The notes beneath the pieces were generated by a model. It was given only the letters and a program-made list of their open reading frames with translations. It was not told where the DNA came from and searched no databases. Below are positions 1,533 to 61,827 of a DNA stretch of 64,000 nt, one piece after another. The first letter of the stretch is position 1. Every line of letters starts with the position of its first letter. The position numbers and the translations under genes are program-made. The stretch comes from Minisyncoccota bacterium (GTDB taxonomy: Bacteria; Patescibacteriota; Minisyncoccia; Phycocordibacterales; XYD1-FULL-46-19), in assembly GCA_041657405.1 (NCBI GenBank), contig JBBABX010000002.1, forward strand, positions 42,726-106,725, read 5' to 3'.

Positions 1533-1707
1533 GTCAACTTAAAAACTAAGGAGTGAAGCGAAACTTATAAACTATCTCCTATCTTTATTTTATCTTCCTT
1601 CTCAGCTTTTCTCTAAATCTCCTCTTTTCTTCTCCTAAAACCCACCCTCTTAATTTTATGTGCTAAATCTGTAAGATGTCAAGCTGTTAATTGTTAGCTT
1701 CTCTTTC

Positions 1708-3400: not shown

Positions 3401-4879
3401 TTATTTATAAGCTGAATTAATTATAGCACTTTTTGAATACAAGATTCTTGTATCTGAAATATTTTTAAAACCAGTTTCTTTAAGTAGTTTTTTTTGTTCA
3501 TCAAAACTTAGCAATACTTTATCATTTTTTTTCTCTTCTTGTTTTATTAAATTATTATAATAAAACATTTTGATTATTGGAATAGAATACTTTATTGAAT
3601 CAGTAATAATTTTAATTAGACCTGACCTTTTTAGATCTTTTTTTATGTGTTCAATAAATATTCTATTTGGATTAAAGTTGTTATAAGGATTTGTTAAAAC
3701 TATTTTTCCTCCAGGTTTTAATACTCGATAAAACTCGCTAATAACCTTTGGTCTAAATTCATAAGGTATAGAATGTAATGTCAACATGCAAATTAACTTA
3801 TCGAACTCATTATCTGAAAACTTAAGATTAGTTAAATCGGATTTTATTAAGGTTGCTTCAGGGTCTTTTGATAAGTGAATTTTTAATGCGGTTTCAGAGT
3901 TATCTGCTCCGACCATTTCAATAGAATACTTTTCCTTAATACTTATTGATAGGATTCCAGTTCCTGAACCTGCATCTAAAATTCTATCGCCATTTTTTAT
4001 ATCTAGTTCCTTGATTACTTCTTCAGTCATTTCTTGATAAGGTATAGCCATTCCTATGACATCAAAGACTTTCATATAATTTGACCAAAAACTCTCATCC
4101 AAAGTATCTTTATTTGTAAAAGAGTAAATTATATCTTTATAAAAAGATACGAAAGAAAAAACAATGTAATACAGAAAGTTGTTTCTCCTCAACCATTTTT
4201 TAAACAAGTATTGTAATTGTGTAGGAGATTTTATCTTAATTTCATTTTGCCGCAAAAATTTAATATATAAATTAGCCACTTTTATTATTATCCCTGTCCC
4301 ATGTCGAGATTTTTTTTCCATTATGCTATCTATATCGCTGAGTTTTTCTGAATCATATATTATATGTTCAGGTTTTAGATTTTCTAACGCATCATTTTTA
4401 CCATCCCATACAACCAGTTCACTTTGTGGATTAAAATAACTTGTTTTCAAAGATAATTCTAAATCTAGGGAGGGATCACATTTGATCCATTTATTATTTA
4501 AAAAAACAAAACTGTATACATGGGATGACTTTTTGCTTATCTTCCTCTTGAGTATGGGGGGAACCACTGGCCCAAAGTATTCTTGTCCTTTTGTTTTTAA
4601 AACACCATAACCGGAGGGAATGTTTATGGATCTAAGCATTGTTACCAACAAATTTGTTTTATTGGTGCAAGTCCCCTCCTTTTCTTGGAGTGTTTCGCTT
4701 GCTTTTCTTTGCCACAAGCCAACTCGATACTCTATGTTGTCTCTAACCCAATTGAAAACAGCGATTGCCTTTTCTTGATCCGAAGAAAAGCCTTTTGTTA
4801 TCTCTTTTGCTTTTTCTGATATCTGAGGATTATTACAGTCACAAAACCTCGTTTCTTTTAAGTATTTTTCGAGTTCCAT
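3401..4879 (-). CDS. fusion protein: N-terminal transglutaminase-like cysteine protease domain plus C-terminal class I SAM-dependent methyltransferase
   Basis: The N-terminal half has a TGase-like Cys-His-Asp core (EGTCTNKTNLLVTMLRSINIPSGY ... HVYSFVFLNNKWIKCDPS). The C-terminal half has methyltransferase motif I (ILDAGSGTGILS) and the post-I/II region (VLKPGGKIVLTNP). Its stop codon sits 1 nt from the HK start. Confidence 0.7.
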   Translation of the reverse strand: MELEKYLKETRFCDCNNPQISEKAKEITKGFSSDQEKAIAVFNWVRDNIEYRVGLWQRKASETLQEKEGTCTNKTNLLVTMLRSINIPSGYGVLKTKGQEYFGPVVPPILKRKISKKSSHVYSFVFLNNKWIKCDPSLDLELSLKTSYFNPQSELVVWDGKNDALENLKPEHIIYDSEKLSDIDSIMEKKSRHGTGIIIKVANLYIKFLRQNEIKIKSPTQLQYLFKKWLRRNNFLYYIVFSFVSFYKDIIYSFTNKDTLDESFWSNYMKVFDVIGMAIPYQEMTEEVIKELDIKNGDRILDAGSGTGILSISIKEKYSIEMVGADNSETALKIHLSKDPEATLIKSDLTNLKFSDNEFDKLICMLTLHSIPYEFRPKVISEFYRVLKPGGKIVLTNPYNNFNPNRIFIEHIKKDLKRSGLIKIITDSIKYSIPIIKMFYYNNLIKQEEKKNDKVLLSFDEQKKLLKETGFKNISDTRILYSKSAIINSAYK

Positions 4880-13929: not shown

Positions 13930-14544
13930 TTATCTACTATAGTATTCTAAGATTGACTCAAAATTGATAATCGTTTCAGCTTTACCAACAACTGGTTCCC
14001 CCTTGACTACCCCCTCACCTTTTTCAATGTCTAAAGATAACCATTCTGGCGTATTGTAATCTTTAATTTTTTCAGTAAGGTTTTGGAAAACACCATTATT
14101 TAAGCTTTGTGGTCTAATTTTTATTTTATCACCAACTTTAACTTGTAAAGATGGAACCCGAGTGCGACGGTTATTTACTAAAATATGACCATGCGAAACT
14201 AATTGTCTAGCCAAAGCACGAGATGAGGCTAATCCTAAGCGGAAAATAACATTATCAAGTCTATTTTCTAAAGTTTTAAACAAACTAGTGGCTCGATCAC
14301 TGCCTTTATGTTTTTTAACTCCTTCCACATATTTGGAAAATTGTCTTTCGGTTATTCCATAAGAAAAACGAGCTTTTTGTTTTTCTAAAAGTTGTAAAGC
14401 ATACTCAGAAGGAGCTCCTTTGGGTCGTTTGCCTGTGCGACGTTTTTTGTCAGGGCCAGAAATGGTAAATTTAGTAGTTTGGCATTTACCAAAAACCCGA
14501 TCACCAATTCGTCTGCAAATTTTATATTTTGGTCCGATTTTCAT
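13930..14544 (-). CDS. rpsD: 30S ribosomal protein S4
   Basis: MKIGPKYKICRRIGDRVFGK N-terminus and an S4 domain. Confidence 0.95.
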   Translation of the reverse strand: MKIGPKYKICRRIGDRVFGKCQTTKFTISGPDKKRRTGKRPKGAPSEYALQLLEKQKARFSYGITERQFSKYVEGVKKHKGSDRATSLFKTLENRLDNVIFRLGLASSRALARQLVSHGHILVNNRRTRVPSLQVKVGDKIKIRPQSLNNGVFQNLTEKIKDYNTPEWLSLDIEKGEGVVKGEPVVGKAETIINFESILEYYSR

Positions 14545-14562
14545 AATAATAATTTAAAAATT

Positions 14563-14991
14563 TTACACCCGACGCGGTTTTGGCGGTTTGGGTCCATTAA
14601 ATGGGATTGGTGTTCGATCTTTTATTGATAAAATATTGATACCTTTTCCAGAAAAAGCGCGCATTGCTGATTCTCGTCCAGCACCAACACCTTTGATAAT
14701 CACATCAATTTCTTTTAATCCCATTGCCAAGGCTCTATCAGCTAATAATTCTCCTACTTTACTGGCGGCAAAGGGAGTTCCTTTTTTAGAACCAGAAAAA
14801 CCAAGGGAACCACTAGAAGACCAAGCATAAACTTTGCCAGAGGGATCAGTCAAGAGCAATTTAGTGTTGTTATAGGTAGCTTCTACGTATAAAATTCCGC
14901 GATCTAACTTTTTCTTAGGCACTCTTTGGCTACTAGCACTACGGCCAGCATTAACTTGTCCTCCTTTTTTTATAATTCTTTTCTTTCCCAT
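14563..14991 (-). CDS. rpsK: 30S ribosomal protein S11
   Basis: GILYVEATYNNTKLLLTDPSGKVYAWSSSG matches the S11 core. Confidence 0.95.
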   Translation of the reverse strand: MGKKRIIKKGGQVNAGRSASSQRVPKKKLDRGILYVEATYNNTKLLLTDPSGKVYAWSSSGSLGFSGSKKGTPFAASKVGELLADRALAMGLKEIDVIIKGVGAGRESAMRAFSGKGINILSIKDRTPIPFNGPKPPKPRRV

Positions 14992-15849: not shown

Positions 15850-18366
15850 TTACTCTACAATCTTTTTTTCGATCTTTATCTCTATTTTTGAATTGTCTTG
15901 AGGTACTTTTTTAATCCAAGGTGGTCGAAAAACAATATTTGCTTTAGTTATTTCCGAATATGAGGCAAAAACATTGTTATATTCATTTTTAGGAGTTTTT
16001 TTAAGATCTTCTTTTAGAGAATTTTCATCAAATTGCCAAATAACATAACCGATTCCTTGTAAATTAAAAGAAAATGAATTTAAATTTTCGGGATTTAAAT
16101 TTTCTTTATCTAATAAAGTAAAATTAAGTTCTTCTAAATTAACAACATCAACTTTGTCTTCCCCGGTCCATCCAGGAATGGCTTTGGCCAAATATTGGCT
16201 TAATTCAGCTTGATCAAACAAAATGCCGGTGGCGGTTATTTTGCCTCTAACGACCACCTTGTCTGAATCAACTTCTGTTGATGTAGCTATTTCAACAGAA
16301 AAACGAGTCAGGATAGCATCATCAAATAAAATATAATTTTCTGGAACCTGTTGTTTTATTTTTTGCACTATTTTTGCCTGCAGACTGCTTTTCATTGTTT
16401 CTTCTAAGGTAGACATATCATTTTCAGAAATTTTTGGTCTTTGCCCGACAAAACCACCACTAATTGGAGTTTTTGATTTGGCGATAATCTTGGCAAATTT
16501 TGGTGAACCAGTAAACCCAGGGATAGTAAAGTCAACTAAACCAAGATTGTGTTCCGGTCCGGCTTTATCAGCATAAACGGTTACTTCTAATTGTCCTGGC
16601 AAAGTCTCGCCGTTTTCTCCTTTGTGTGTACCCGGAATAGTTACCGGCTCAGCAATCCTATAAATATTGCCATTGGGCGCTTGGAAACGAGTTTTTTCTA
16701 CTAAGGGTTGAGAATTTGAACTATAATTATTTATTATTACAATTTGGCCACTAGCTTTTATGGCGACATTCTCGCTTCCTGACGCAGTTACCGAGGTTGA
16801 CTCTGATTCCTCAATATTTTCAGCTAAAACAAAATTTAAACCATTTTCTCCTTCTTTGGTGGCAATATAAGTATTAGAAACATCTAATTGTCCTTGTTTT
16901 GGTTGAATATTTACAATTGCTTTCGCAAAAATATTAGAAAAAACAAAACCGCCAATACTTATAACTAAAATTACAGACAATAAAATTAGCAGGCCACCCA
17001 AACGGAAACAATGTTTGGTTTTTGTTCTTGTTGTATTTAAAGATGGCATCGACTCTTTAGATTCTATTTTAGTTTTTTTGCCTCCAACTTCTGGAAATAT
17101 TTCACGAAGACTTTTTTTGTTTTTTACAATATCTTGCATGTTTTTTAAAGTATTAATAAAATAAAAATTACTTGGATTTTCATTTAGTTTATCACAAAAT
17201 AGCGCTTCGGCCAAAACAAAGGTGTTGGTAATCTGGCCAGGGCTATTTATAGGTTCATATGTTAGCATTTTTTTGTCAATGAAGCCAACAGAAAGATAAT
17301 TTCTGGGAGAAAGCAGGAAGTCTGAAAGATTAGTTTTTTTGATCCAATTGGCTAATAAAAAATCTGAGTCATCATAACCGATAAGATAAACGCGTTCAGG
17401 AATAAAAACTGTTTCGGCGATTTGATCAATGGTTTTTTGAAATAAATTTGACCAACTGATAAAAATTTTCTCTAAAGCTTGATTGGCACGAGTAGTCGCA
17501 ATTTGGCTAGTTTTTTTACCCATTACTAATTTCAGAAGTGATTCAGCTTCGGCTGGCACGGTTCCAGAAAGTTCGGCTAATTTTTTTATAATTTGACGAT
17601 GTCCAAAAGGAAAAGTGCGATGTTCAATCAAAATACCATCAACAATCACCATTATATCAGTAATATCCCCCGCGCTGTCTATTAACAAAAAATCTTTTTC
17701 ATTTGCTAGAAGTTTTTTAAAAATAGAGTAAGCGGTATAAGTAAAAGATTGGAATCGAACAGAAGTTTCGGGAAAAAAATTTTCTATAACATTTTTTAAA
17801 TAACCCAAAAGAGAAGCTGAGCCAATACTTAGATATTGATTGATTTCTATGTTATTAGCAATTTGGCCAGAAATCTTATCAATTTTATAACCATCTAAGA
17901 TTACAGACATGATTTCATTTTCTATAATGACAGAATAATCGTTTAAGATTTCAGGATAAAGGGAAGGGTGTCTTGTTATAAAATCTTTTGCTGTTTTTTG
18001 GCTAAGTTCATAAATTTTTTGGGGAGTAACGGAAGTCTTTTTATCTGAATGCCAAACAATATTTTTTGTTTGAGTTATAAAATAAGGCGATGATAAAAAA
18101 CAAAAAACCACTTCGGGTTTATAAGAATTATCTTTTAATGTTTTTAAAACTTTTTCTAATCCTTGATTAATTTCTTTGAAATAATCTTTAAAAGTTGTTG
18201 ATTTTTGCGGAGATAGATAAATTTGAGTAAAAAATAAAATACTAGAAGAAATACTGAATTTATTCTTCTGACCAGCTTTAAAAATAGCACCACTAATTTG
18301 ATCACTACCAATATCAATAAGTGCAACCAAATTATTCCCCCTTTTTTTGCGTGACAAAAAAGACAT
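15850..18366 (-). CDS. large bitopic protein: N-terminal actin-like (ASKHA; FtsA/PilM-like) ATPase-fold domain, single TM helix, ~350-aa extracytoplasmic domain
   Basis: The N-terminus has LVALIDIGSDQISGAIF (phosphate-1-like) and a second DxG-type motif (LLIDSAGDITDIMVIVDGIL). A hydrophobic segment follows at about aa 455-480 (LGGLLILLSVILVISIGGFVFSNIF). The rest is a beta-rich, Thr/Asn-containing C-terminal region. Confidence 0.5.
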   Translation of the reverse strand: MSFLSRKKRGNNLVALIDIGSDQISGAIFKAGQKNKFSISSSILFFTQIYLSPQKSTTFKDYFKEINQGLEKVLKTLKDNSYKPEVVFCFLSSPYFITQTKNIVWHSDKKTSVTPQKIYELSQKTAKDFITRHPSLYPEILNDYSVIIENEIMSVILDGYKIDKISGQIANNIEINQYLSIGSASLLGYLKNVIENFFPETSVRFQSFTYTAYSIFKKLLANEKDFLLIDSAGDITDIMVIVDGILIEHRTFPFGHRQIIKKLAELSGTVPAEAESLLKLVMGKKTSQIATTRANQALEKIFISWSNLFQKTIDQIAETVFIPERVYLIGYDDSDFLLANWIKKTNLSDFLLSPRNYLSVGFIDKKMLTYEPINSPGQITNTFVLAEALFCDKLNENPSNFYFINTLKNMQDIVKNKKSLREIFPEVGGKKTKIESKESMPSLNTTRTKTKHCFRLGGLLILLSVILVISIGGFVFSNIFAKAIVNIQPKQGQLDVSNTYIATKEGENGLNFVLAENIEESESTSVTASGSENVAIKASGQIVIINNYSSNSQPLVEKTRFQAPNGNIYRIAEPVTIPGTHKGENGETLPGQLEVTVYADKAGPEHNLGLVDFTIPGFTGSPKFAKIIAKSKTPISGGFVGQRPKISENDMSTLEETMKSSLQAKIVQKIKQQVPENYILFDDAILTRFSVEIATSTEVDSDKVVVRGKITATGILFDQAELSQYLAKAIPGWTGEDKVDVVNLEELNFTLLDKENLNPENLNSFSFNLQGIGYVIWQFDENSLKEDLKKTPKNEYNNVFASYSEITKANIVFRPPWIKKVPQDNSKIEIKIEKKIVE

Positions 18367-20447: not shown

Positions 20448-21614
20448 CTATCTTATTATTCCTCCCCCCAAACAAAAATTGCCATCATAAATCACCAGCG
20501 ATTGTCCGGTGGGTTTTAGCTGAGGTTTATCAAAACAAAAAGTTGCTTCTCCGTTTTTTAAAGCGGTAAACTTTCCGGCTTGTAATGGTTGGCGATAGCG
20601 GAAACGCGCCTGGTACTTTGGACCGATAGTTGGCGTCTCGTTGATCCAGTTGGTTTCGCGAATGTCAAAATTTGTAGTCATTGCCCCGGTTTGATTTGGT
20701 TCAGAAGAAACGGTAATAGTGTTTTTTTCTATATCTTTGGCAATCACAAAGTATGGTTTTTGCTCGGGGGTTTTTTTCTCAATCGCAAAGCCGTGCCGTT
20801 CACCAATCGTAAAGAAAATGGCACCGTCGTGATAGCCAATGACTTCACCTGTCTCACTTAAAACGTCCCCTGTCTTAGACGGAATTTGCCCAGCCAAGAA
20901 TTTTTTGAAATCAATTTGCCCAATGAAGCAAAGACCTTGGCTGTCTTTTTTCTCGGCGTTGGGCAGATCAAACTTTTTGGCAAGTTTCCTTACTTCTTCT
21001 TTTTCATAACTGCCAACCGGAAACAAGATGTGCGTCAACTGCTCTTGTCTTAAATTCCACAAAAAATAAGTCTGATCTTTGTTCTTATCTTTGCTTAACG
21101 CCAGTTGACGAGTGTCGTCTGCTCCAATGCTCCTATTCTTTAACTTTTTTGACTTTTCACTTTTGACTTCTAACTTTTGATTTCTAACATTGATTTGTGC
21201 GTAATGTCCTGTTGCCACAAAATCCGCGCCCTGACTCATAACATAATTATAGAAGATTCCAAACTTAATTTGTTTATTGCACATAACATCAGGATTCGGG
21301 GTTCGGCCGGCACGATATTCACTCAAAAGATAATTCACCACTTTTTCTTTGTATTCTTTAGACGCATCAAAGGTGAGAAGTGGAATATCCAGATAAGCCG
21401 CTGCGCGCATAGCTTCACGTCTTTCTGTTCGCCAATTGCAAGCAATGCCCCAATCAGTTTCTGTATCATCAACCGGATCCCAAGGCTTGATATAAACCCC
21501 AACCACGTCACAACCAGTCTTCTTCAGTAAAGCCGCCGAGACAGAGCTATCCACCCCGCCCGACATCCCAACATAGACCGTCTTTCTGCCTTTTTTATTA
21601 TAACCCAAAGCCAT
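20448..21614 (-). CDS. mnmA: tRNA-specific 2-thiouridylase MnmA (with a low-complexity lysine-rich insert)
   Basis: It has the PP-loop (VYVGMSGGVDSSVSAALL), catalytic Cys motifs and a C-terminal beta-barrel. Confidence 0.9.
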   Translation of the reverse strand: MALGYNKKGRKTVYVGMSGGVDSSVSAALLKKTGCDVVGVYIKPWDPVDDTETDWGIACNWRTERREAMRAAAYLDIPLLTFDASKEYKEKVVNYLLSEYRAGRTPNPDVMCNKQIKFGIFYNYVMSQGADFVATGHYAQINVRNQKLEVKSEKSKKLKNRSIGADDTRQLALSKDKNKDQTYFLWNLRQEQLTHILFPVGSYEKEEVRKLAKKFDLPNAEKKDSQGLCFIGQIDFKKFLAGQIPSKTGDVLSETGEVIGYHDGAIFFTIGERHGFAIEKKTPEQKPYFVIAKDIEKNTITVSSEPNQTGAMTTNFDIRETNWINETPTIGPKYQARFRYRQPLQAGKFTALKNGEATFCFDKPQLKPTGQSLVIYDGNFCLGGGIIR

Positions 21615-21746
21615 TTCCCGCTAATTTTACCACGGATTTTGGGGCACACCAAGTTTCTCTAGATTCATCATAATATTTGACAATTTTTTAAAAAATTATA
21701 TTATAGGATTAGATCTGAGAACTCAAAAAACAAAAAAAGGAGGAGT

Positions 21747-22340
21747 TTGATGAAAACCAAAAACATGTTCTTTGTGATGGCTATTCTGACATTGTTCTCA
21801 ATTGGTGCTTTTGGAAGTTTTTATTGCCCCCCGTGCACTCCAGGAGACCCGGGAACTTGGGAGTATGTCAATCAAGACTTTATAAGTTTTGAGGGACAAA
21901 ATTGGGCCTTTAGCGGGGAATTCTTGGATTGGGATGTTAGGGGCCCTTTCTTTGAATTATTCTATCAGGATGGGCTTCTGGAACTTCACAGGGGGTTTTT
22001 CCCATCATTTCCTGAGCTTGAAATGGAAATTCCCTTTGGGGATTTTATAGTCTCTGGGTGGTCCCCGTCTGGCGGAAATCACTTAACGTTCAGACTAGAA
22101 GACTATTCAGTAGAGGGAAGCTCTTCACTGCTTCTTGGTTATAATGGCTGGCCTTGGCCAACAATTGTGGAAGATGAGCCACTACATTTAACAGGCGAGA
22201 CAAGCTATGCCTGTATAAGAATTGGTTCAGGGGACTTTCAATGTCCCCCGCCTCCCGAGATTGTCCCAGAACCGGCGACAATCTCGCTCCTAGCCTTTGG
22301 AATAGTCGGCCTAGCTGGTTTTCGGAGACTAAAAGCTTGA
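21747..22340 (+). CDS. secreted protein with a C-terminal PEP-CTERM sorting signal
   Basis: An N-terminal signal peptide is present. The C-terminus is VPEPATISLLAFGIVGLAGFRRLKA, i.e. PEP motif, hydrophobic helix, basic cluster. The gene is visibly more GC-rich than its flanks and has its own RBS (AAGGAGGAG). Confidence 0.6.
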   Translation: MMKTKNMFFVMAILTLFSIGAFGSFYCPPCTPGDPGTWEYVNQDFISFEGQNWAFSGEFLDWDVRGPFFELFYQDGLLELHRGFFPSFPELEMEIPFGDFIVSGWSPSGGNHLTFRLEDYSVEGSSSLLLGYNGWPWPTIVEDEPLHLTGETSYACIRIGSGDFQCPPPPEIVPEPATISLLAFGIVGLAGFRRLKA

Positions 22341-22356: not shown

Positions 22357-22388
22357 AGTCGACGCAGAAATGTGTCGACTTTTTTATT
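22357..22388 (+). terminator. intrinsic terminator downstream of the PEP-CTERM gene
   Basis: AGTCGACGC-AGAAAT-GTGTCGACT hairpin followed by TTTTTTATTTT. Confidence 0.6.
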
Positions 22389-22432
22389 TTGTCAAAATTT
22401 AAATAAAAATAATTTTTTAGTTCGCCCATATT

Positions 22433-22987
22433 TTATTCACTTGTCATCAGCTTTTGGTAAATTTCATAAGTGACACGAGCATCCGCTAAGGCTGAATGAG
22501 CCTTTTTATTTCGTAAGTTAAAATGTTCCGCCAAAGCCCAAAGACTAAATTTGGGTGTCCAATCTTTGTGATAAAGTTTGGCAAAAGCCAAAGACAATAA
22601 ATCCAGTTTGTGATAATCAAGTTTTAAGTCAACATTTTCTCGTTGAGCCGCTAAACCCAAAAAGCCCCAATCAAAAGAAACATTGTGCGCCAACATAATT
22701 GAGCCCTCCACTTTTTGAGCCAAATCTTTTAAAATTTGTTTTAATTCACCAGCAAATAACCACTCTGATTCATTATAATGATTAATTCGTAACGCTTCTG
22801 GGTCGGCCGTTTCTAAATGTTGAGGTTTTACCTTATATTCAAATTCTTCAATTTCTCTAAATATGTGAGTGCCATCATTTGTGAAAGTATGTTCTGCTAT
22901 TACTCCGCCAATTTCTAAAACCTCATGTTTTTCAAGGTTTAGACCAGTCGTTTCTAAGTCGATAACTGCGATTTTTATTTTTTTCAT
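22433..22987 (-). CDS. DEDDh-family 3'-5' exonuclease (DnaQ/DNA pol III epsilon-like)
   Basis: Exo I (IAVIDLETTGL), Exo II (ML.AHNVSFDWGFL) and Exo III (H-x4-D: AHSALADA) motifs are present. Confidence 0.8.
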   Translation of the reverse strand: MKKIKIAVIDLETTGLNLEKHEVLEIGGVIAEHTFTNDGTHIFREIEEFEYKVKPQHLETADPEALRINHYNESEWLFAGELKQILKDLAQKVEGSIMLAHNVSFDWGFLGLAAQRENVDLKLDYHKLDLLSLAFAKLYHKDWTPKFSLWALAEHFNLRNKKAHSALADARVTYEIYQKLMTSE

Positions 22988-26499: not shown

Positions 26500-29400
26500 T
26501 CAAATATTTGTAGGAGCCAAAACAAAATTTATTAAACGATCTTTTACGTAGAGAGTTTTTTTAATAGAACGATCCTCTAGCCAGCATTTTATATTTGAGT
26601 TTTCTTTAGCTGTTTCAATTATCTCTTTTTCACTAGCGTTAGTTGCTACAATAATTGTGCCTCTAACCTTACCATTAACCTGAACAACGATTTTCAATTC
26701 TTGTTTGATTATTTTTTGTTCATCATAGATTGGCCAAGATGACAAATGAATGGATGTCTTATGCCCAAACCTAAACCATAATTCCTCAGTTAAATGAGGA
26801 GCAAAGGGCGCCAATAATTTGAGCATATTTTCAAAATCTGCTTGGTTAATTGCCAACTGTTTTTCCATTTCATTAGTTAATATCATCAAGGATGATATGG
26901 CTGTATTAAAGGCAAAATTAGAAATATCAGTGCTCACTTTTTTGATAGTTTGATGAATCTGACAAACTAAAGAACTTTCTTCTTGGAAAACTTTTACTTT
27001 CTCGGCTAAACGCCATACTTTTTCTAAAAAGCGCCGCGCACCAATCATATTCTCGGTTTGCCAAGAAGCCCCCGCCTCAAAAGGACCCATAAACATTTCA
27101 TAAACACGCAAAGTGTCCGCGCCATATAATTTGACCATTTCATCCGGGTTAATAACATTCCCCCAACGTTTAGACATTTTGCGACCGTCATTACCAGAAA
27201 TTAAACCTTGATTCTTTAATTTAGCAAAAGGTTCTTTCTCACTTACCAAACCAAGATCAAATAAAAATTTGTGCCAAAAACGAGCATAAATCAAATGTCT
27301 CGTTGCATGTTCGGTGCCACCAACATACATATCCACTTCTCGCCAGTATTTTTCTTTATCTTTAGAAACTAATGTTTCTTCATTTTGAGGATCCATAAAA
27401 CGAAGGTAATACCAAGAAGAACCTGCCCATTGAGGCATTGTATTTGTTTCTCGTCTAGCTGGGGCACCACAAATTGGGCATTTAACGTTAACCCATCTAG
27501 AGATACTGGCCAAAGGTGATTCGCCAGTATTTGTTAGGGTATAACTTTTTACTTTGGGTAATTTAATTGGTAATTTTTCTTTAGGTACTGGCACCACGCC
27601 ACATTTCTCGCAATGAATTATTGGGATCGGTTCACCCCAATAACGTTGACGTGAGAAGACCCAATCACGAAGTTTATATTTAACCACTTGGCGACCTCTG
27701 ACAAATTTGGTTATGGCTTTTTTTGCTTTTTCACTGGATAACCCTGAAAACTTGGGTCCAGCGTTGACTAAAATTCCAGGGTCAGTATGAATTATCAAAT
27801 CTTTATACCATTCATTTTTCGCCAATAAAGACCAGGGGGTTATGGATTCCTGTTTTTTTTCTTTAGAAAACTGCTCAATCTGTTTGTTTACCTCCGTGAC
27901 TGTTTCAGGCGACAAAACAATCCGCGCCATTTTACCTTTTCGGTCTTTAAACAAAAAAATTATACTATCACCAACATATTCGTTCCAATAGCCGGGTGAA
28001 AGTTTATTCCTGATCAATTTTTCGTAAACTGGCAATTTTTTAGCAGATAAAATTAACAGCCTGTCGCCGTTAGGTTTTTTCTCAAATATCTTAGCACCAA
28101 CTTCTTCTAATTCGCTATCAGAAATTTGGTTAGCACCAGTAAGATAACTTTTTATCGGCGCATTTTTCTTGGCAATACTTTGAATAACAGGTAAATTATA
28201 TTTTTGGGCAAAAGCAAGATCACGCAAATCATGCGCCGGCACCGCCATCACCGCACCAGTGCCATAATCAGGCAAAACATAATCAGCGATAAAGACGGGG
28301 ATTTCTCTGCCGTTAGAAGGATTAATAGCAGATAAACCTTTCAGCTCAACTCCGGTCTTTTCCCTGTCCTCGGTTGTTCGTTCTATCTCACTTTGTTTTC
28401 TTGTCTGTTTTTGGTATTTTTCAATATTCAGTTTGTTGTCAAAGATTGATAAATTTTTAACAACAAATTGGTGTTCTGGCGATAATACCAAATAAGTAGC
28501 CCCAAACAAAGTATCTGCGCGAGTAGTGAAAATTTTTATAGTATCCAAAATATTTTCCAAGACAGTTGGTTCTACGGTACCACAAGTATGGGTTTTTTTA
28601 GCTTCAAATTTAATTAGATTCCCACCTAAATTTTTTTGTAATTTTTCTCCTTGTTGTTCGTCTATCAAAAAATCTTTTTGGTCTTCTAAAATTACTATCT
28701 CTCCGGCATTTTTTTTGATTTTAGAAAAATTAAATTTCCAATTTACCAAAATACTAACTTCTGGCCTTTCTTTATCTTTAAATTTTGGTTCCATCAAACC
28801 AGAAACTAGAACAAATTTTTTGATTGGATTTTTTAAACGTTCCAAGATTCGCAAACCAACAACTGTCCCCAAACTATGCCCAATCAAAACAGTATTTTCA
28901 TCAAAAATGATATTTTTCATCACAAATTCTACTTGGTTAGCCACATTTGGCAAAAAAGGATTAGGCAATTGTGGCACTATTACTTGATGACCACGTTTTT
29001 CCAATTCTCGCTTAAGCCATGGGAACCAACAGTATTTAGGTCCACTTTTATAACCGTGTAAAATAACAAATTTTAATTTTTTAGTTTTTAATTCAAAATT
29101 TATCTCTATTCCCTCACTACGACCAATCCAATTACGTTGAGATTCCTTAATGGATTCTGGCCAGGCTAAATCGGTTAAATCTTCAAGTAAGCGGTCAGCA
29201 TAATCAGTAATTTTTAATACCCATTGACGCATTGGCCTTTTTTCCACCTCTGAACCACAACGCTCGCATTTGCCATTCTCCAGATCTTCATTAGCAAGTC
29301 CTGTTTTACAAGATGGACACCAATTAATCGGCTCATAGGATTGATACGCCAAACCTTTTTGGAAAAGTTGCAAAAAAATCCATTGCGTCCACTTATAATA

Positions 29401-29841
29401 TTTTGGATCTGTTGTATTTATTTCACGAGACCAGTCATAATCAAGCCCAATAATTTTTAATTGTTCTTTGAAATGTTTGATATTTTTCTTGGTCGCAATT
29501 TCGGGATGAATTTTATTTTTGATAGCGTAATTTTCGGTCGGTAAACCAAAAGCATCCCAACCCATTGGGTGAAGAACATTAAAACCACTCATTCGTTTAT
29601 AACGAGAATAGATATCTGTTCCAATATAACCCTTGGGATGCCCAACATGCAGACCCTCTCCTGAGGGGTATGGAAACATATCTAAAATGTAACACTTATC
29701 TTTTTTTGAGTTATCTTTAGTTTGATAAATTTTGGATTGACGCCATTCTTTTTGCCACTTTGATTCTATCTTTTTATGGTCATATTTATTAGAAATTTTG
29801 GCTTTGAAAACTTTCTTCTTAGACGTCATTTTAAGATACAT
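26500..29841 (-). CDS. leuS: leucyl-tRNA synthetase carrying an inserted RBBP9/YdeN-type serine hydrolase domain
   Basis: Class I HVGH (HVGHPKGY) and KMSKR motifs are present. The CP1 editing domain (TTRADTLFGATY), anticodon-binding and C-terminal domains are present. An extra ~180 aa lies between WIGRSEG and the editing domain: ILHGYKSGP...TVLIGHSLGTV...FVLVSG...HTCG. Confidence 0.95.
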   Translation of the reverse strand: MYLKMTSKKKVFKAKISNKYDHKKIESKWQKEWRQSKIYQTKDNSKKDKCYILDMFPYPSGEGLHVGHPKGYIGTDIYSRYKRMSGFNVLHPMGWDAFGLPTENYAIKNKIHPEIATKKNIKHFKEQLKIIGLDYDWSREINTTDPKYYKWTQWIFLQLFQKGLAYQSYEPINWCPSCKTGLANEDLENGKCERCGSEVEKRPMRQWVLKITDYADRLLEDLTDLAWPESIKESQRNWIGRSEGIEINFELKTKKLKFVILHGYKSGPKYCWFPWLKRELEKRGHQVIVPQLPNPFLPNVANQVEFVMKNIIFDENTVLIGHSLGTVVGLRILERLKNPIKKFVLVSGLMEPKFKDKERPEVSILVNWKFNFSKIKKNAGEIVILEDQKDFLIDEQQGEKLQKNLGGNLIKFEAKKTHTCGTVEPTVLENILDTIKIFTTRADTLFGATYLVLSPEHQFVVKNLSIFDNKLNIEKYQKQTRKQSEIERTTEDREKTGVELKGLSAINPSNGREIPVFIADYVLPDYGTGAVMAVPAHDLRDLAFAQKYNLPVIQSIAKKNAPIKSYLTGANQISDSELEEVGAKIFEKKPNGDRLLILSAKKLPVYEKLIRNKLSPGYWNEYVGDSIIFLFKDRKGKMARIVLSPETVTEVNKQIEQFSKEKKQESITPWSLLAKNEWYKDLIIHTDPGILVNAGPKFSGLSSEKAKKAITKFVRGRQVVKYKLRDWVFSRQRYWGEPIPIIHCEKCGVVPVPKEKLPIKLPKVKSYTLTNTGESPLASISRWVNVKCPICGAPARRETNTMPQWAGSSWYYLRFMDPQNEETLVSKDKEKYWREVDMYVGGTEHATRHLIYARFWHKFLFDLGLVSEKEPFAKLKNQGLISGNDGRKMSKRWGNVINPDEMVKLYGADTLRVYEMFMGPFEAGASWQTENMIGARRFLEKVWRLAEKVKVFQEESSLVCQIHQTIKKVSTDISNFAFNTAISSLMILTNEMEKQLAINQADFENMLKLLAPFAPHLTEELWFRFGHKTSIHLSSWPIYDEQKIIKQELKIVVQVNGKVRGTIIVATNASEKEIIETAKENSNIKCWLEDRSIKKTLYVKDRLINFVLAPTNI

Positions 29842-30034: not shown

Positions 30035-30658
30035 CTAGTTCAAGGTTCCCGACTTAAATTTCTTGTGCCCTAAGTAAATCAAAATCGCTAGGGCTAAACC
30101 AAGAATTATCACGCGCAAATAGTCCTCCATTGCTGACCAATATTGAACAGAAGCAACAACAAAAGACAAGACTCCTCCATAAGAAAGGCTGAGGGAAATT
30201 ACCTCATTGGTGGCAGCCAAAAAGCCGATAATTAACACCGCCAAACCCAAAACGACCAAAACAACAAAGATATTCCGTTGATAAAACTCTCTTGCTACCT
30301 CATAATTTTTTTGGCAAGTATAATTCAAATCGCAAAAACTCTTGGTCATAACTTTCGGCCCTTCTCCATCGAGTGCTTCAATCAGAGACGATTCATAAGC
30401 GGCATTTTCGGTCCAAGCACCACCTTGAGCCACACAATCAGCTTGATTAGTTGGCGTAATTGTTACTTGTTTGGTTTGACAAAAATCCTCCCATTGTGGT
30501 TCTTGATAAAATAATCTTGTCGCGAAATGAAAAAAAAGATTCAGCACAATAATGATGCCAATAACTAACGCCCATTTTAAGATATTTTTGTTTGTCATAT
30601 TTTTAGAGTTAACAATAAAAATAATTGATAATAAAATTAAAAAGAAAAATATTGGCAT
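30035..30658 (-). CDS. hypothetical membrane protein (N- and C-terminal TM segments, Cys-containing exodomain)
   Basis: The hydrophobic N-terminus is MPIFFFLILLSIIFIV. There are three C-terminal hydrophobic helices and six Cys in the central region. Confidence 0.4.
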   Translation of the reverse strand: MPIFFFLILLSIIFIVNSKNMTNKNILKWALVIGIIIVLNLFFHFATRLFYQEPQWEDFCQTKQVTITPTNQADCVAQGGAWTENAAYESSLIEALDGEGPKVMTKSFCDLNYTCQKNYEVAREFYQRNIFVVLVVLGLAVLIIGFLAATNEVISLSLSYGGVLSFVVASVQYWSAMEDYLRVIILGLALAILIYLGHKKFKSGTLN

Positions 30659-32155: not shown

Positions 32156-32383
32156 TTATTTTTCAGCCAAAATTTTCTGCAATTCGTCACGATACTTATT
32201 AACCACATCCATTGTCGCAATCATATGATCAACTTTATCTTTCTTAATTTTTTCTTCTATCTCGTTAGCAATTTGTTGGAAAAAAGCTGGATTTTTTTTG
32301 ATAATTGCCATCAAGGGCTCTATTTGTTCTTTTGAAACCCCCTTAGATTGAAGCATTTTTTTAATAAAAAATTCTTTAAACAT
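32156..32383 (-). CDS. small helical hypothetical protein (ORF trimmed to the ATG at 32381-32383; the longer ORF overlaps the tRNA)
   Basis: The N-terminal 31 codons of the 32156-32476 ORF are the antisense of tRNA-Ala(GGC). The remaining 76 aa are Lys/Glu-rich. Confidence 0.3.
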   Translation of the reverse strand: MFKEFFIKKMLQSKGVSKEQIEPLMAIIKKNPAFFQQIANEIEEKIKKDKVDHMIATMDVVNKYRDELQKILAEK

Positions 32384-32384
32384 G

Positions 32385-32456
32385 TGGACCATACCGGAAT
32401 CGAACCGGTCACCTCTCCCATGCCATGGGAGCGCTCTACCAAATGAGCTAATGGCC
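32385..32456 (-). tRNA. tRNA-Ala (anticodon GGC)
   Basis: I hand-folded the cloverleaf: acceptor GGGCCAT, D-arm GCTC/GAGC, anticodon stem CTCCC/GGGAG with loop AUGGCAU (the same loop as E. coli tRNA-Ala GGC), T-arm GGTTCGATTCC. A G3:U70 Ala identity pair is present. No encoded CCA. Confidence 0.9.
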
Positions 32457-32588
32457 CAAATTTCAAAAGTTGCCACTTATAAATATAACAAATCTTTATT
32501 AAATTGTAAAAGTGAGAAAAATTTAAAAATTATTTTTGATTTTATTTTAGCTGTATTCGTGCTATAATCATCCAATCATTTAATTTCA

Positions 32589-32665
32589 GGGCCCGTAGTT
32601 CAGTTGGCTAGAACGCCACATTTGCAATGTGGAGGTCACCGGTTCGAGCCCGGTCGGGTCCACCA
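32589..32665 (+). tRNA. tRNA-Ala (anticodon UGC), CCA encoded
   Basis: GGGCCCGTAGTTCAGTTGGCTAGAACGCCACATTTGCAATGTGGAGGTCACCGGTTCGAGCCCGGTCGGGTCCACCA; anticodon loop UUUGCAA; G3:U70 present. Confidence 0.9.
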
Positions 32666-32736: not shown

Positions 32737-35700
32737 TTAATTGGAATTTGGTATTTCTTGGACCGTTTTTCGAGGCCATCTAGCTAAAATAAGTGGAATT
32801 AAAAGTAGGGTCAAAACCACCGAAAAAATCATTCCGAACATTACTGTGAATGCAAGCGGGCCCCACATCGCATTAACAAAAATCAAGGGTATCATCCCAA
32901 TAAAAGTGGTAGTCGTCGTAAGTAAAATAGGACGCAAACGTGTGGTAGCTGCTTCAATAGCCGCCTCTTGCAATGGGAGCTTTCTTTCCTGACGTTCTCG
33001 TTCAAATTGATCAATAATTAAAATAGTGTTGTTTACAATTATTCCTGCCAAAGCAATAAAACCAAGAATAGAAGAAAAACTTAAGGCTTGCCGAGAAATC
33101 AACAAACCAACAAAAACCCCGATCAATGATAATGGAATAATCATTAGTGTATAAAAGGCATAACGGAAAGAATTAAACTCCAAAACTAAAATTACCAACA
33201 TTAACAAAACACCCAGAATAAGTGCTTGCAACATTTCTGTAAAAGTTTTCATCATATCTTCTGTTTCACCCCCGGCCGTGATTTGCACATTGTAAGATTG
33301 TTCCATTTCTGTTTTGTGAGTAAATAATTCATTAATAACCTCTGAAGCTGTTGTCCCCTTATGAAGATATCCGCTAACAGTAATTAAACGATCCCCATTC
33401 TCGTGTTCAATGGTGGAGTGTCCTTTTTCAATTGAACGTTCCAAAATTGAACCAAGTAAAATATTCCCTTGTGGGGTAGATACTGACAATTGACTAATGG
33501 CTTCCATCACAGTTTCGTTGGTCCGACCAGGCAAATTTTGACCAGGATTCAAACCAACTTTAACAAAAACATCGATATCCTCACCCCCTTGTCTGATTTT
33601 TGTCGCTGAAACCCCATAAATTGAAGAACGTAGGGTTTGGGCAATAGTCATAGCATTTAGACCAAATTCAGTCGCGAGATCTCGATTTAAAGTCAAAACC
33701 AAGTCAGATAATTCATCATCCGCGCTTATTGTAATATCTCTAGCGCCACCAATTTTATCCAAATAATCTTTGACGGCAGCTGCTGCTAAACTTAGAGAAT
33801 TTAAATCTTCACCTGTTATTTTTATTTCTAAGGGTGCGCCCGTGGGTGGGCCTTCAGATGGTTCCATAACCATTATTTTAGCTTCTGTCATTAAATCTGT
33901 TGAATCTTTTATTTTGGCTAAAATTTCTGAACTCGTCTGTTTTCGATTTTTTTTCAAAGTCATTGTAATATTGCCCAAATTTTCGCCAGAACCACTAACA
34001 CCAAAATTGAACATTGAAGCCGAGCCAACACTTGTGATAAAAGATTCAATGTCATCAATTTCATACAAAACCTCTTCCACCGCGCGCACGGCCAAATCAG
34101 TCTTCTCTAAATCGGTACCTTTTAATTTTTCAATATCAATATAAAGATAATCTACATCAGATTGTGGAAAAAAGACGGTTTCCACCAAGCCTGATAGCGG
34201 TAAGCCAAATGAAAAGATAAAAGCAATAATTAATCCCCAAAATAATTTATTTTGTCTTCGTTGATCTTGGAAAAACCAACGTAATTTATTACGATACCAA
34301 TTACGCAAACGATGGCTAGTTTCTTCTTGCCGGCGACCAAGTTTGGAGGTATTTTCACCTTTTTTTACCACCAAAACTGTTAAAATTGGCACGACAGCCA
34401 AAGCAACAAAAATTGAAGCTAAAAGAACAAAAATTGTAGTATAAGGAATACTGGCAATAAATTTACCAACAATCCCAGATAGAAAGAAAAGTGGAAAGAA
34501 AACAGCAATAGTGGTCATGGTGCCAGAAATGAGTGGCCAACTATATTCACTCACAGTTTCGCGCGCTGCTTCAAATTTGCTATGTCCCATATTGAAACGA
34601 GAATAAATTGATTCCACCACAACAATGCCTGAGTCAACCAAAATTCCAATTGCCAAAATAAGAGAAAATAAACTAATAAAATTTATTGTGTTACCACTAT
34701 TTTTTAGACCGATAAAAGCAATCAAAAATGAAAGTGGAATAGACAATCCGGCAACAATCGCTTCGCGCCAGCCAATAGTCAAAAACAGAACAAGCATCAC
34801 CAAAGCGACTGTTTCCAATCCTGTTGTTATCAAACGACGAAGATCGTCTTTTATCATTTGCGAGATATCAAAAGAAATTAAAACCTCACTATTTTGTAAT
34901 TGATTTTTCTCTAATTCAAATAATTTCTTTTTGACAGTGTCACCAATTTTTGTAATATCACCACCAGCTTTTTTGTAAATAGACAAGGTTATTGCTTGGA
35001 CAGAAGGTTGTCCGTTTTTACTAAAACGATCCAAACTTTTTGCCTCTTCGGCGCCATTATAAACAGTGGCAATGTCACGCAAATAAATTATTCTCCCATC
35101 GCGTGAAGTTATCGGTAAATTTACCACTTCATCAGCATTGTCTAAATCTCCAGCAAATTTTAAATTATAGTTAACACCATCAACTACCAATCCCCCGATT
35201 GGCAAAGAGGCATTGGCAACTGAAATTGATTGAATAATTTCATTTAAACTAACTCCAAAGCTGTCTAATTTGCCTTTGTCAACAATCACGTTAACCTCTC
35301 GCTTTCGATCTCCAGTCATTAAGATCTTTGAAACCCCAGCAGTAGACTTTAAATTACTTCGAGTATCTTCCGCTAAAACAGCAAACTCCGTTGCTGGCAA
35401 TTCTGAAGAAATAGATACCATCATAATCGGTTGGTCAGCAAAATTTATTTCCATAACCATCGGATCTTCAGCTCCACTTGGTAATTCTGGTTTAAGTTTA
35501 TCAAGTTCGTCTTTGAGCTTTTGAATTGATTTATCAATATCAGCGCTGGTTTCAAATTCTACAACAACGGTTGAAACCCCCAAACCAGAAGAGGATGTTA
35601 TTTGGGTTAAATTTTCTAGATTATTTAAACCATCTTCCAATTTATTAGTAACCAATTTTTCCATATCCTCAGCCGAAGCGCCAGGATAAACAGTTGTAAT

Positions 35701-35841
35701 GATTCCCATTGGAATTTGCACTTCAGGAGTAGATTCTTTGGGAATAGTAAAATAAGAAATCAAGCCAAAGATTATAATCCCAACAATCAATAAATAAGTA
35801 AATTGCCTTTTATGCAAAAAAAATGACCAAAAATCTTTCAT
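32737..35841 (-). CDS. RND-family efflux transporter permease (AcrB/HAE1-like)
   Basis: 1034 aa with 12 TM helices and two large loops. The N-terminal MKDFWSFFLHKRQFTYLLIVGIIIFGLISY…PEVQIP is typical of AcrB. Confidence 0.95.
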   Translation of the reverse strand: MKDFWSFFLHKRQFTYLLIVGIIIFGLISYFTIPKESTPEVQIPMGIITTVYPGASAEDMEKLVTNKLEDGLNNLENLTQITSSSGLGVSTVVVEFETSADIDKSIQKLKDELDKLKPELPSGAEDPMVMEINFADQPIMMVSISSELPATEFAVLAEDTRSNLKSTAGVSKILMTGDRKREVNVIVDKGKLDSFGVSLNEIIQSISVANASLPIGGLVVDGVNYNLKFAGDLDNADEVVNLPITSRDGRIIYLRDIATVYNGAEEAKSLDRFSKNGQPSVQAITLSIYKKAGGDITKIGDTVKKKLFELEKNQLQNSEVLISFDISQMIKDDLRRLITTGLETVALVMLVLFLTIGWREAIVAGLSIPLSFLIAFIGLKNSGNTINFISLFSLILAIGILVDSGIVVVESIYSRFNMGHSKFEAARETVSEYSWPLISGTMTTIAVFFPLFFLSGIVGKFIASIPYTTIFVLLASIFVALAVVPILTVLVVKKGENTSKLGRRQEETSHRLRNWYRNKLRWFFQDQRRQNKLFWGLIIAFIFSFGLPLSGLVETVFFPQSDVDYLYIDIEKLKGTDLEKTDLAVRAVEEVLYEIDDIESFITSVGSASMFNFGVSGSGENLGNITMTLKKNRKQTSSEILAKIKDSTDLMTEAKIMVMEPSEGPPTGAPLEIKITGEDLNSLSLAAAAVKDYLDKIGGARDITISADDELSDLVLTLNRDLATEFGLNAMTIAQTLRSSIYGVSATKIRQGGEDIDVFVKVGLNPGQNLPGRTNETVMEAISQLSVSTPQGNILLGSILERSIEKGHSTIEHENGDRLITVSGYLHKGTTASEVINELFTHKTEMEQSYNVQITAGGETEDMMKTFTEMLQALILGVLLMLVILVLEFNSFRYAFYTLMIIPLSLIGVFVGLLISRQALSFSSILGFIALAGIIVNNTILIIDQFERERQERKLPLQEAAIEAATTRLRPILLTTTTTFIGMIPLIFVNAMWGPLAFTVMFGMIFSVVLTLLLIPLILARWPRKTVQEIPNSN

Positions 35842-35842
35842 A

Positions 35843-37447
35843 TCATTTTACAATTTTTACCTTTTCACCTTCTTGCAAACCACGTGCGTCAATAACAAAA
35901 GCTTTATTAGGCAAGAGACCTTTCACTAAGATTTTGTCCCCATCTATTGGACCTTCTTCAATTGGTGTTGCGATTAATTCACTAGAAGTAGAAACTGTAA
36001 AAATAACCATTTCATTCGGTAAAATTTTAACTGCAGACAAGGGGATAGGCAAATATTCAGCTTTAACTAAATTTTTCTCGGATTTGACTTGTGCTATTTC
36101 CAAAGATACTGATTGACCATTCACAATATCAGAATTCTCTTCATTATTTAAAGAAATTTTAACTTCTATTTTTTTAGTAATTGGGTCTAAGGCAGGAGCC
36201 AAGCCAACAACCTTACCAGTAAACAAACCATCAATTACAACTGGCGCCCCTATTTCAACTGCACTCCTTTCATTTTCAGTAATATAAGCAATTATTTCCA
36301 AACTGCCATTATTGGATACAAAAGCCGCTTGTTGAGTTGAAGAAACATAATCACCCAACTTTATACTTAAACTATTAATTGTTCCCGTGATCGGTGAACG
36401 GATATAAGTTTTTTCCAAATTTATTTTGGCAGCTTCATAAGCAGCACGCGCTTGTTCCACCATCGCTTCGCCAGAAGTCAAAATATCACTCGAAGATTCA
36501 TAGGCAACTCTTTTAGCGTTATAACCCTCCAAACTAGACAAGAGAGAACTAATAACTCCATTAACCGACGACCTTGTGCTAGATATTGTAGTTTTATAAC
36601 TGTCTATTACCTGTTGATGAGAAGCATCACTAACTTTTAGACTGTTTATCAAACCAGCGGCTTGTTCAAGCATTTCGCTTATTTTACCCAAATCAACTCT
36701 GGCAAGCTCTACTTCTTGTCGCAAAGTCTCATAGTAAGAGTCTTGGGCATTGATAGATTCCAAACGAGTATTCCAAGTTGATAATATTTCATTCATTTCC
36801 AATCTTTTCTGATATAAATCAAATAAAGTTTTGGCATTAGCTGAATAATCAAAACTATAAGAAGTTCCTCCAACCAAAAAGGAAGTTTTAAATTTGGGGT
36901 TTGCCGTGTTTGGATTTTCGTAAAATTTATCAAGTTGATTATAAATAGCATCATCAGCTGTTGCGTAGGCTGTTTTTAAAGAATTAATTAGAAGTTGTTT
37001 AGCTTCAATTAAACCAGCCTGACCAATTATTAATTGTGATTCAGCACTTTTTAAAGCAGCGTAAGCACGATTGACTTCATTTTTTTGTGCGTCATTATCT
37101 ATCATCGCAATAATCCCCCCAGCTGAAATATTATCTCCCAATTGTTTATAAATTGCCTTAATAACCCCCCCAGCTTCAGTTTTGATATTTACTTCATTAA
37201 TTGAACGAACCAGACCAGAAAGAGGTAAATAATTTTCTTGAGTAGCAATTGTCGCAGCTGTTGTTAATTTTACTTCTTTTAAAATCTCCTTATCTTCCAA
37301 CGACTCGGTTTTTGAGAGACCAAAATATAAAATAGCTAAGATTATTAAAAGACCAACAGCAAAAAGTAAGGCAATCTTTTTTTGTCTCAAAGTTTGTTTT
37401 AAGCTCTTTTCACCAGCTTCTTCTATTTTTTTCCAACTAAATATCAT
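35843..37447 (-). CDS. RND efflux periplasmic adaptor (membrane fusion protein, HlyD-like)
   Basis: It has an N-terminal TM anchor, a long coiled-coil hairpin and C-terminal beta-barrel/MP domains. It lies 1 nt upstream of the RND permease. Confidence 0.85.
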   Translation of the reverse strand: MIFSWKKIEEAGEKSLKQTLRQKKIALLFAVGLLIILAILYFGLSKTESLEDKEILKEVKLTTAATIATQENYLPLSGLVRSINEVNIKTEAGGVIKAIYKQLGDNISAGGIIAMIDNDAQKNEVNRAYAALKSAESQLIIGQAGLIEAKQLLINSLKTAYATADDAIYNQLDKFYENPNTANPKFKTSFLVGGTSYSFDYSANAKTLFDLYQKRLEMNEILSTWNTRLESINAQDSYYETLRQEVELARVDLGKISEMLEQAAGLINSLKVSDASHQQVIDSYKTTISSTRSSVNGVISSLLSSLEGYNAKRVAYESSSDILTSGEAMVEQARAAYEAAKINLEKTYIRSPITGTINSLSIKLGDYVSSTQQAAFVSNNGSLEIIAYITENERSAVEIGAPVVIDGLFTGKVVGLAPALDPITKKIEVKISLNNEENSDIVNGQSVSLEIAQVKSEKNLVKAEYLPIPLSAVKILPNEMVIFTVSTSSELIATPIEEGPIDGDKILVKGLLPNKAFVIDARGLQEGEKVKIVK

Positions 37448-55278: not shown

Positions 55279-55283
55279 GTAAA

Positions 55284-61668: not shown

Positions 61669-61827
61669 TTTCAATCAATCAACAATTAAAGCAACCGAGT
61701 GCCATTTTTTTCTTAATCTTCCAAAAATTCGCCCGAATTTGGGGGAATTAAGAAAAATTTCCCTCATTCCCAAACTTTTTTAATATTTTGAACCAATTTA
61801 AAGCTCTTTTCATAATAAAACTTACTA

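Follow-up and report, generated by a model that had tools for sequence, protein, structure and literature searches.

The 64,000-nt stretch of DNA analyzed here (the window) comes from a member of the Patescibacteria and carries, on its plus strand, a gene for a 196-residue protein that ends in a PEP-CTERM sorting signal. Judged by its sequence, the protein is a member of the PEP-CTERM domain class. It belongs to a two-member orphan family, the other member being a positional orthologue from a sister lineage. Neither an exosortase nor a second substrate was seen in the DNA contiguous with the gene. The reading we favor, with confidence that is roughly evenly balanced, is that the protein is exported by Sec to the cell surface and that its tail serves as a plain membrane anchor, uncleaved by any exosortase. 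A complete exosortase system, with the enzyme encoded elsewhere in the same genome, seems to us somewhat less likely.

The surface biology of Patescibacteria is thought to depend on sortase and pili, and their cells to lack an outer membrane; a PEP-CTERM tag is unusual in such a host. Its conservation in an episymbiont clade, on a fast-evolving surface protein, provides a concrete test case. The domain label itself has already been assigned by the NCBI pipeline, where the identical protein is entered as MFA5736808.1, 'PEP-CTERM sorting domain-containing protein [Candidatus Paceibacterota bacterium]'; the evolutionary picture is the new part.

A PEP-CTERM tail on a small secreted protein

The last 25 residues of the protein, V172-A196 (VPEPATISLLAFGIVGLAGFRRLKA), form its extreme C-terminus and have the tripartite layout of the signal, in that the motif V172-P-E-P abuts the hydrophobic helix ATISLLAFGIVGLAGF, which is followed by RRLKA and the stop codon. 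A preliminary description of the gene had called this C-terminus a textbook PEP-CTERM signal and proposed that it be scored with TIGR02595. The score was 22.7 bits (cut-off 16), with model positions 1-23/24 on residues 172-195/196, and the Pfam model PF07589 likewise gave 22.7 bits (cut-off 20.7), in line with that description. A hidden Markov model (HMM) that we built from eight PEP-CTERM tails matched two of the 4,348 open reading frames (ORFs) contained in 1.37 Mb of DNA, mostly from Patescibacteria, namely the gene under study and its homologue P0002 (described below), and the assignment of the tail is therefore not a chance match. Other NCBIfam matches were confined to the tail and reached 12-23 bits, against cut-offs of 50-125 for the named PEP-CTERM families concerned. 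None of the full-length models, among them floc_PepA (NF033554), XDP1 (NF041927), THxN (NF038125) and EDSAP-1 (NF041538), reached its cut-off, and VPDSG-CTERM, below its cut-off too, was the sole other sorting-tail model to respond.

The features of the gene and its two borders are as follows (window coordinates):

20448-21614, minus strand: mnmA (tRNA 2-thiouridine synthase; Pfam tRNA_Me_trans, E 1e-71), left border of the slot that holds the gene
21677-21704, plus strand: predicted sigma-70-type promoter TTGACA-16 nt-TATTAT, 11/12 consensus positions, about 45 nt 5' of the ATG, predicted from the consensus match alone
21738-21743, plus strand: ribosome-binding site AGGAGG, 6 nt before ATG 21750 and 3 nt before TTG 21747
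21750-22340, plus strand: coding sequence of the PEP-CTERM gene, 196 residues, stop codon at 22338-22340
21750-21815, plus strand: predicted signal peptide, residues 1-22 (MKTKN, hydrophobic core, A-F-G), cleavage predicted after G22
21816-22262, plus strand: mature ectodomain, residues 23-171, beta-rich, aromatic/Gly/Pro-rich and orphan, ending in the Pro-rich linker CPPPPEI
22263-22337, plus strand: PEP-CTERM tail, residues 172-196, with the VPEP motif, the hydrophobic helix and the basic end RRLKA
22357-22390, plus strand: intrinsic terminator with a 10-bp stem, a 4-nt loop and a T-run (free energy -15.3 kcal/mol, z -2.5)
22433-22987, minus strand: RNase T/DnaQ-like exonuclease (Pfam RNase_T), right border of the slot

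The protein is thus composed of a signal peptide, a beta-rich orphan domain of about 150 residues, a Pro-rich linker and the C-terminal tail. Its N-terminus, MKTKN-MFFVMAILTLFSIGAFG followed by S at the predicted cleavage position, is laid out like a Sec signal peptide. This segment appeared as a hydrophobic segment in the hydropathy scan and as a helix of residues 2-22 in both AlphaFold2 models, and cleavage after G22 was assigned by the -3/-1 rule rather than by a dedicated predictor. Residues G19, A20 and G22 are kept in P0002, and hydropathy, predicted structure and conservation all agree with a signal peptide.

Outside the tail, a Pfam/NCBIfam scan of the protein returned no family. AlphaFold2 predicted 9-10 strands in the ectodomain, at a confidence (pLDDT) of only 41 from the single sequence and 44 from a two-sequence alignment. 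A sequence search of the PDB yielded no match, and neither did a Foldseek search of PDB structures (best E 0.46, TM-score at most 0.26). With models of such low reliability, we claim no more for the fold than that it is predicted to be beta-rich.

The start was placed at ATG 21750 because the spacing to AGGAGG is 6 nt, compared with 3 nt to TTG 21747; the TTG was considered as the start and rejected on this ground and because public gene calls give a protein of 196 residues. The gene is the sole credible plus-strand protein gene in a minus-strand run of about 57 kb. From 1.7 to 58.4 kb, the remaining ORFs on the plus strand, one of which is antisense to uvrA, had no family support. The PEP-CTERM and RNase T genes converge, with the terminator between them. 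A lone plus-strand gene with a clean terminator of its own, as the preliminary description had it, is thus borne out, and with the predicted promoter and the ribosome-binding site the gene is a real, self-contained accessory gene, probably transcribed on its own.

A two-member family in a variable slot

A word-indexed search of 5.8e9 clusters returned just the protein itself, and a full HMMER search of 1.84e9 representatives found one full-length relative, P0002 (210 residues, E 6e-11). The remaining HMMER matches were limited to the tail, in some cases together with a stretch just upstream of it, beyond which no similarity could be seen by eye. A profile search and scans of viral and metagenome DNA added nothing beyond P0002, so that a single homologue came out of about 15 billion proteins. 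The architecture of P0002 equals that of the protein under study, with a signal peptide beginning MKTK, a G-A-x-G cleavage region, a domain of about 150 residues and then VPEPTTLSLMAIGGAGLICYRRRRK. Overall identity is about 33 %. By region, the signal peptides are 50 % identical, the mature domains 34 % in an alignment with 35 gap columns, and the tails 52 %, the VPEP, GL and RR all being retained.

P0002 is encoded on L005, a low-GC contig of 3.5 kb from wastewater project PRJEB12083 that also carries IS-type helix-turn-helix (HTH), Fic and NYN genes. With the IS-type HTH gene upstream, P0002 was at first taken as non-syntenic; this was rejected when the end of the contig (3370-3519) proved to lie inside an RNase T gene, convergent with P0002 just as in the window. 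The last 50 residues of this RNase T are 84 % identical to that of the window. For L017 (UR.bin254), the closest GTDB relative, the value is 86 % over the same 50 residues and about 75 % over the whole block. The host of P0002 is therefore a sister Paceibacterota.

The gene and its homologue sit in an exchangeable position. Dozens of metagenome-assembled genomes (MAGs) of Patescibacteria share the gene order LeuRS (leucyl-tRNA synthetase) - sigma-like/HARE-HTH - DUF8128 - YceG - RNase T - mnmA - AlaRS (alanyl-tRNA synthetase) - FtsA-like, and within this conserved housekeeping block the slot 5' of mnmA, bordered on its other side by RNase T, is a hotspot in which lineage-specific cargo is found. 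In L017 the PEP-CTERM gene is absent and the slot holds an unrelated 97-residue membrane protein; among other relatives, its contents range from a transposase-like gene and a ZIP-type transporter to CcdA-like and other genes, a receiver domain, and a different small secreted protein on the opposite strand. L025 has there a secreted protein of 109 residues, with an excess of GC at third codon positions (GC3) of z 3.7. Among the relatives L014-L052 the slot lies, for example, at:

L025, 9521-9850
L015, 9268-9915
L016, 9175-9939
L026, 8340-9985

More generally, in many Paceibacterota the YceG/RNase T-mnmA interval is a hotspot whose genes are unrelated, specific to a lineage and in many cases encoded on the opposite strand. 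On L005, the IS-type HTH protein (HTH_23/HTH_38; positions 1-511) stands in the place of mnmA on one side of P0002, and on the other side an insertion of about 2.1 kb (1404-3231: a 52-residue ORF, Fic and NYN) separates P0002 from RNase T; both rearrangements add to the evidence for a recombination hotspot at this locus.

From a positional homologue of the same architecture in a sister lineage it follows that the gene was present before the two lineages split; it is absent from a third. It also evolves far faster than its neighbors, with 34 % identity in the mature domain as compared with about 84 % for RNase T.

Base composition had been one argument for a foreign origin. The gene is numerically richer in GC than its neighbors, as described previously: its GC content is 0.46 against an ORF mean of 0.369 (standard deviation 0.043), the second-highest value among about 54 credible ORFs. 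When the amino-acid sequence was re-coded with the codon usage of the window, however, the expected GC was already 0.42, where the other genes average 0.364 and reach at most 0.425. About 60 % of the excess is thus due to the amino acids that make up the protein (Gly 11 %, Pro 9 %, Phe 11 %, Trp 3 % and Lys 1.5 %, with Asn and Ile also low). The GC3 is 0.41 where 0.31 is expected (z about 3.1-3.2), a deviation equalled or topped by 7 of the 52 other genes, including mnmA (z 4.9) and a GTPase gene. GC alone was therefore rejected as proof of transfer, and it is weak evidence of foreign origin, because the excess is mostly driven by the amino acids and native genes reach a similar GC3. P0002 deviates more strongly, with a GC3 of 0.48 against a background of 0.30 (z 5.8), and its neighbors Fic and NYN are at background.

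For comparison, a high-GC island at 61800-63000 (up to 57 % GC) contains a plus-strand ORF of 151 residues (62121-62576; GC3 0.73, z 11.7) for which no Pfam family was found. As a candidate for recently acquired foreign DNA it is far stronger than the PEP-CTERM gene. Around an ASCH gene close to this ORF, the surrounding genes differ in the same-species assemblies L008 and L009, marking a strain-variable region.

Taken together, the location in a hotspot and the GC3 excess of P0002 amid neighbors at background give moderate support to an old horizontal origin. Of the horizontal acquisition proposed in the preliminary description, the variable slot, the absence from L017 and the composition of P0002 speak in favor, the GC argument holds only in part, and a recent arrival can be set aside, given the positional orthologue in the sister lineage and the lack of any donor-like homologue. 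The search for the taxonomic origin of the mature domain, also proposed there, thus led to a homologue in a sister Paceibacterota and to no donor-like homologue in the databases searched. Short AT-rich repeats flanking the gene were considered as scars of insertion and rejected as chance occurrences, since their register is inconsistent.

A trivial explanation would be that a Gram-negative gene had been wrongly joined to a Patescibacteria contig during assembly or binning. Beyond the higher GC nothing speaks for this, and we regard it as scarcely credible. The DNA of the gene is 100 % identical, across both junctions and with the same neighbors, in four further independent assemblies as well as in the NCBI MAG contig of 173,559 bp, and a chimera is excluded by this agreement of five assemblies. 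In addition, the genes that enclose it are conserved and syntenic in Patescibacteria, and P0002 adjoins the orthologous RNase T gene in yet another assembly. One of the four assemblies (IMG 3300014204) comes from leachate well LW1 at a landfill in Southern Ontario where Patescibacteria dominate. The Patescibacteria context noted earlier accordingly holds, both by the NCBI label of MFA5736808.1 and by synteny.

Search for a sorting enzyme and possible roles of the tail

Through contigs whose overlap with the window is 100 % identical, the view was extended by 9,659 bp on the right and 14,505 bp on the left, and the region inspected was thus 88 kb, perhaps 10-15 % of a Paceibacterota genome. No exosortase or archaeosortase was found among the multi-pass membrane proteins of the window and these contiguous flanks, in agreement with the earlier remark that no exosortase is nearby. 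The multi-pass proteins of the window are a 7TM histidine kinase, an AcrB-type RND (resistance-nodulation-division) pump, an ABC (ATP-binding cassette) exporter, an EamA protein and a 207-residue protein of no recognized family. In the left flank, about 9-11 kb from the start of the window, is a cluster of GT2-like, GT4 and GT9 glycosyltransferases, in which the precomputed Pfam calls contained no exosortase. Two proteins were examined as hidden sorting enzymes and rejected, because neither the 207-residue membrane protein (30035-30658, minus strand) nor a 229-residue protein with six transmembrane (TM) segments (14007-14696 of the flanking contig L010) gave an exosortase, archaeosortase or rhomboid signal with Pfam and NCBIfam at E <= 10. 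The former has about five hydrophobic segments and a central loop with four Cys, and matches no Pfam or NCBIfam family. A second PEP-CTERM tail was found neither in the 88 kb nor in 80 related Patescibacteria loci (1.3 Mb).

Haft et al. described PEP-CTERM proteins as having N-terminal signal peptides, often with at least 20 substrates per proteome, and exosortases as having at least eight TM helices, occurring strictly together with PEP-CTERM and often encoded in loci for extracellular polysaccharide (EPS). To this system (XrtA/XrtB) the protein is alike in its signal peptide, in the PEP that abuts a helix and in the Arg/Lys cluster, and also in that its mature domain has no relation to other PEP-CTERM proteins, the usual situation in this class. 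It differs in that one copy was seen, where tens per genome are typical, and in that no linkage to an exosortase or an EPS or glycan locus was seen within the inspected region, the gene being located between mnmA and RNase T. It differs also in its host. PEP-CTERM systems have been described for lineages with a periplasm as well as an outer membrane (Haft et al.), whereas this host is a Paceibacterota by label and synteny, and the absence of an outer membrane from Patescibacteria is a state proposed in the literature. In the parts of the CPR (Candidate Phyla Radiation)-wide family survey of Meheust et al. 2019 accessible to us, sortase is the enriched sorting enzyme, and the tables of widespread CPR families there list no exosortase family, which is a weak indication. 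No paper in the literature searched links PEP-CTERM or exosortase to CPR lineages.

Other known systems offer partial parallels. PepA of Zoogloea resiniphila and other floc-forming PEP-CTERM proteins (NF033554) are likewise small, secreted and from wastewater-type habitats, and floc_PepA gave the best NCBIfam E-value, but the match is confined to the tail (residues 160-195, 22.8 bits against a cut-off of 80) and the mature domain is non-homologous. LPXTG/sortase substrates share the logic of a signal peptide combined with a C-terminal sorting signal. Here, in contrast, there is no LPXTG motif near the C-terminus, no spacer before the helix and no LPXTG-type NCBIfam match; the motif abuts the helix, as in systems that use intramembrane proteases. 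PGF-CTERM/archaeosortase A of archaea belongs to the same enzyme superfamily and operates in cells without an outer membrane, albeit the signature here is PEP and not PGF, and the 88 kb contain no archaeosortase. Archaeosortase A demonstrates that sorting by the exosortase superfamily works in a single-membrane envelope, and a monoderm-type cell is thus compatible with it in principle. A possible bacterial precedent is XrtG, an exosortase homologue of Gram-positive bacteria, which lack an outer membrane. XrtG is not known to have PEP-CTERM substrates, and nothing of the kind was detected in the region examined.

The gene, or at least the tag, would have been acquired long ago by the ancestor of this small clade from an exosortase-bearing lineage. 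In the mechanism that we favor, the pre-protein would be exported by Sec, its signal peptide cut after G22 and the ectodomain displayed on the cell exterior, with the C-terminal hydrophobic helix retaining the protein as a type-I (stop-transfer) anchor and the RRLK end left in the cytoplasm. The ectodomain would most likely mediate contact with a host cell or with the extracellular matrix, a function that we guess from its aromatic/Gly-rich composition and rapid divergence; the protein would then be a candidate host- or matrix-contact factor of an uncultured landfill episymbiont. Several points weigh against this account. With some 10-15 % of a typical Paceibacterota genome inspected, an exosortase and more substrates could sit elsewhere, and the strict co-occurrence of PEP-CTERM and exosortase reported by Haft et al. 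raises the prior for a complete system. VPEP is kept in spite of 34 % identity in the mature domain, a hint at selection on a motif that a plain anchor does not need, albeit a weak one with two sequences. The GC3 deviation of the window copy falls inside the range of native genes, and no donor lineage was found, so that the horizontal origin rests on slot variability and codon composition. Finally, the proposed role of the ectodomain is a guess, made with unreliable structure models.

The main rival is an ordinary, complete system, in which an exosortase-family enzyme, and probably more PEP-CTERM proteins, would be encoded outside the 88 kb, and the protein would be cleaved at or near the PEP and transferred to a surface acceptor. 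We consider this possible but on the whole rather unlikely. A tail that passes curated models, the strict co-occurrence, the VPEP conserved between orthologues of about 33 % identity and the glycosyltransferase cluster, according to which the organism builds surface glycans, all argue for it. On the other side are the lack of an enzyme or second substrate in the inspected region, the cluster included, when many substrates per genome are typical, the lack of any such tail in 1.3 Mb of related loci, and the silence of the CPR literature and (weakly) of the family tables. Were it true, normal exosortase sorting would be newly seen in the CPR and extended beyond diderm lineages. If instead the tag is functional in a cell without the enzyme, the question becomes what reads it, possibly the host. 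The exosortase of a diderm host, or a non-homologous and so far unrecognized intramembrane protease of Patescibacteria, would fit a motif that is conserved with no visible enzyme, and Patescibacteria are episymbionts, some of them on PEP-CTERM-rich floc formers such as Zoogloea; the two family-less multi-pass proteins at 30035-30658 and on L010 could be cited as candidates. Neither, however, is adjacent to the gene or has an exosortase match even at E <= 10, the topology of trans-cellular processing is hard to picture, and no precedent appeared in the literature searched, so that this speculative explanation seems improbable to us.

At about the same low level we place a functionless, decaying passenger, that is, a recently transferred fragment in which the PEP-CTERM tail was retained by chance and is not under selection. 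The orphan status, the hotspot and the GC3 above background would suit it, but the ORF is intact, a promoter close to the consensus, a strong ribosome-binding site and a terminator accompany it, its DNA is identical in five assemblies, and an orthologue with all three parts has been kept in a sister lineage in which the comparable 50 residues of RNase T are 84 % identical. A more far-reaching claim, that the clade, presumably with a minimal genome and no outer membrane, maintains a fast-diversifying surface protein whose PEP-CTERM tag is under selection in a cell lacking its own exosortase (the tag being read by the exosortase of a diderm host or by an unrecognized enzyme), or else that it owns a true CPR exosortase system, is in our judgment doubtful, and we keep to plain anchoring as the preferred account.

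Other features of the window

Further genes of the window deserve brief mention. LeuRS (26500-29841, minus strand; 1,113 residues) contains at residues 258-410 an alpha/beta-hydrolase stretch (PF06821 Ser_hydrolase, Abhydrolase_1), placed between the catalytic N-terminal part and the editing domain; the LeuRS of L017 is of similar length. At 32737-37447 (minus strand) the AcrB-type RND transporter (1,034 residues, E 6e-187) adjoins an HlyD/RND membrane-fusion adaptor of 534 residues. No TolC-like partner was seen with this pair; for the lineage, absence of an outer membrane has been proposed.

The uvrA gene appears to be divided into two overlapping minus-strand ORFs (42089-43843 and 43765-44769), of which the N-terminal part has 334 and the C-terminal part 584 residues, with an overlap of 79 nt. 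Possible explanations are a frameshift, a pseudogene and a split gene. Two divergent tRNA-Ala genes, GGC (minus strand) and TGC (plus strand), lie about 130 nt apart at 32384-32665, and an ORF at 32156-32476 that overlaps the first of them is probably spurious.

An 838-residue protein (15850-18366, minus strand) combines a weak FtsA-like match at its N-terminus with a long C-terminal extension containing one TM segment, and is kept beside AlaRS in relatives. At 3401-4879 (minus strand) a transglutaminase core (residues 23-136) is fused to a class I S-adenosylmethionine-dependent methyltransferase (residues about 290-420). The minus-strand region 54015-55850 comprises an apparent sigma/anti-sigma-like module (55284-55850 and 54865-55278), judged by sequence only, which lies 5' of a gene for a 288-residue secreted protein (54015-54881) that matches no NCBIfam or Pfam family.

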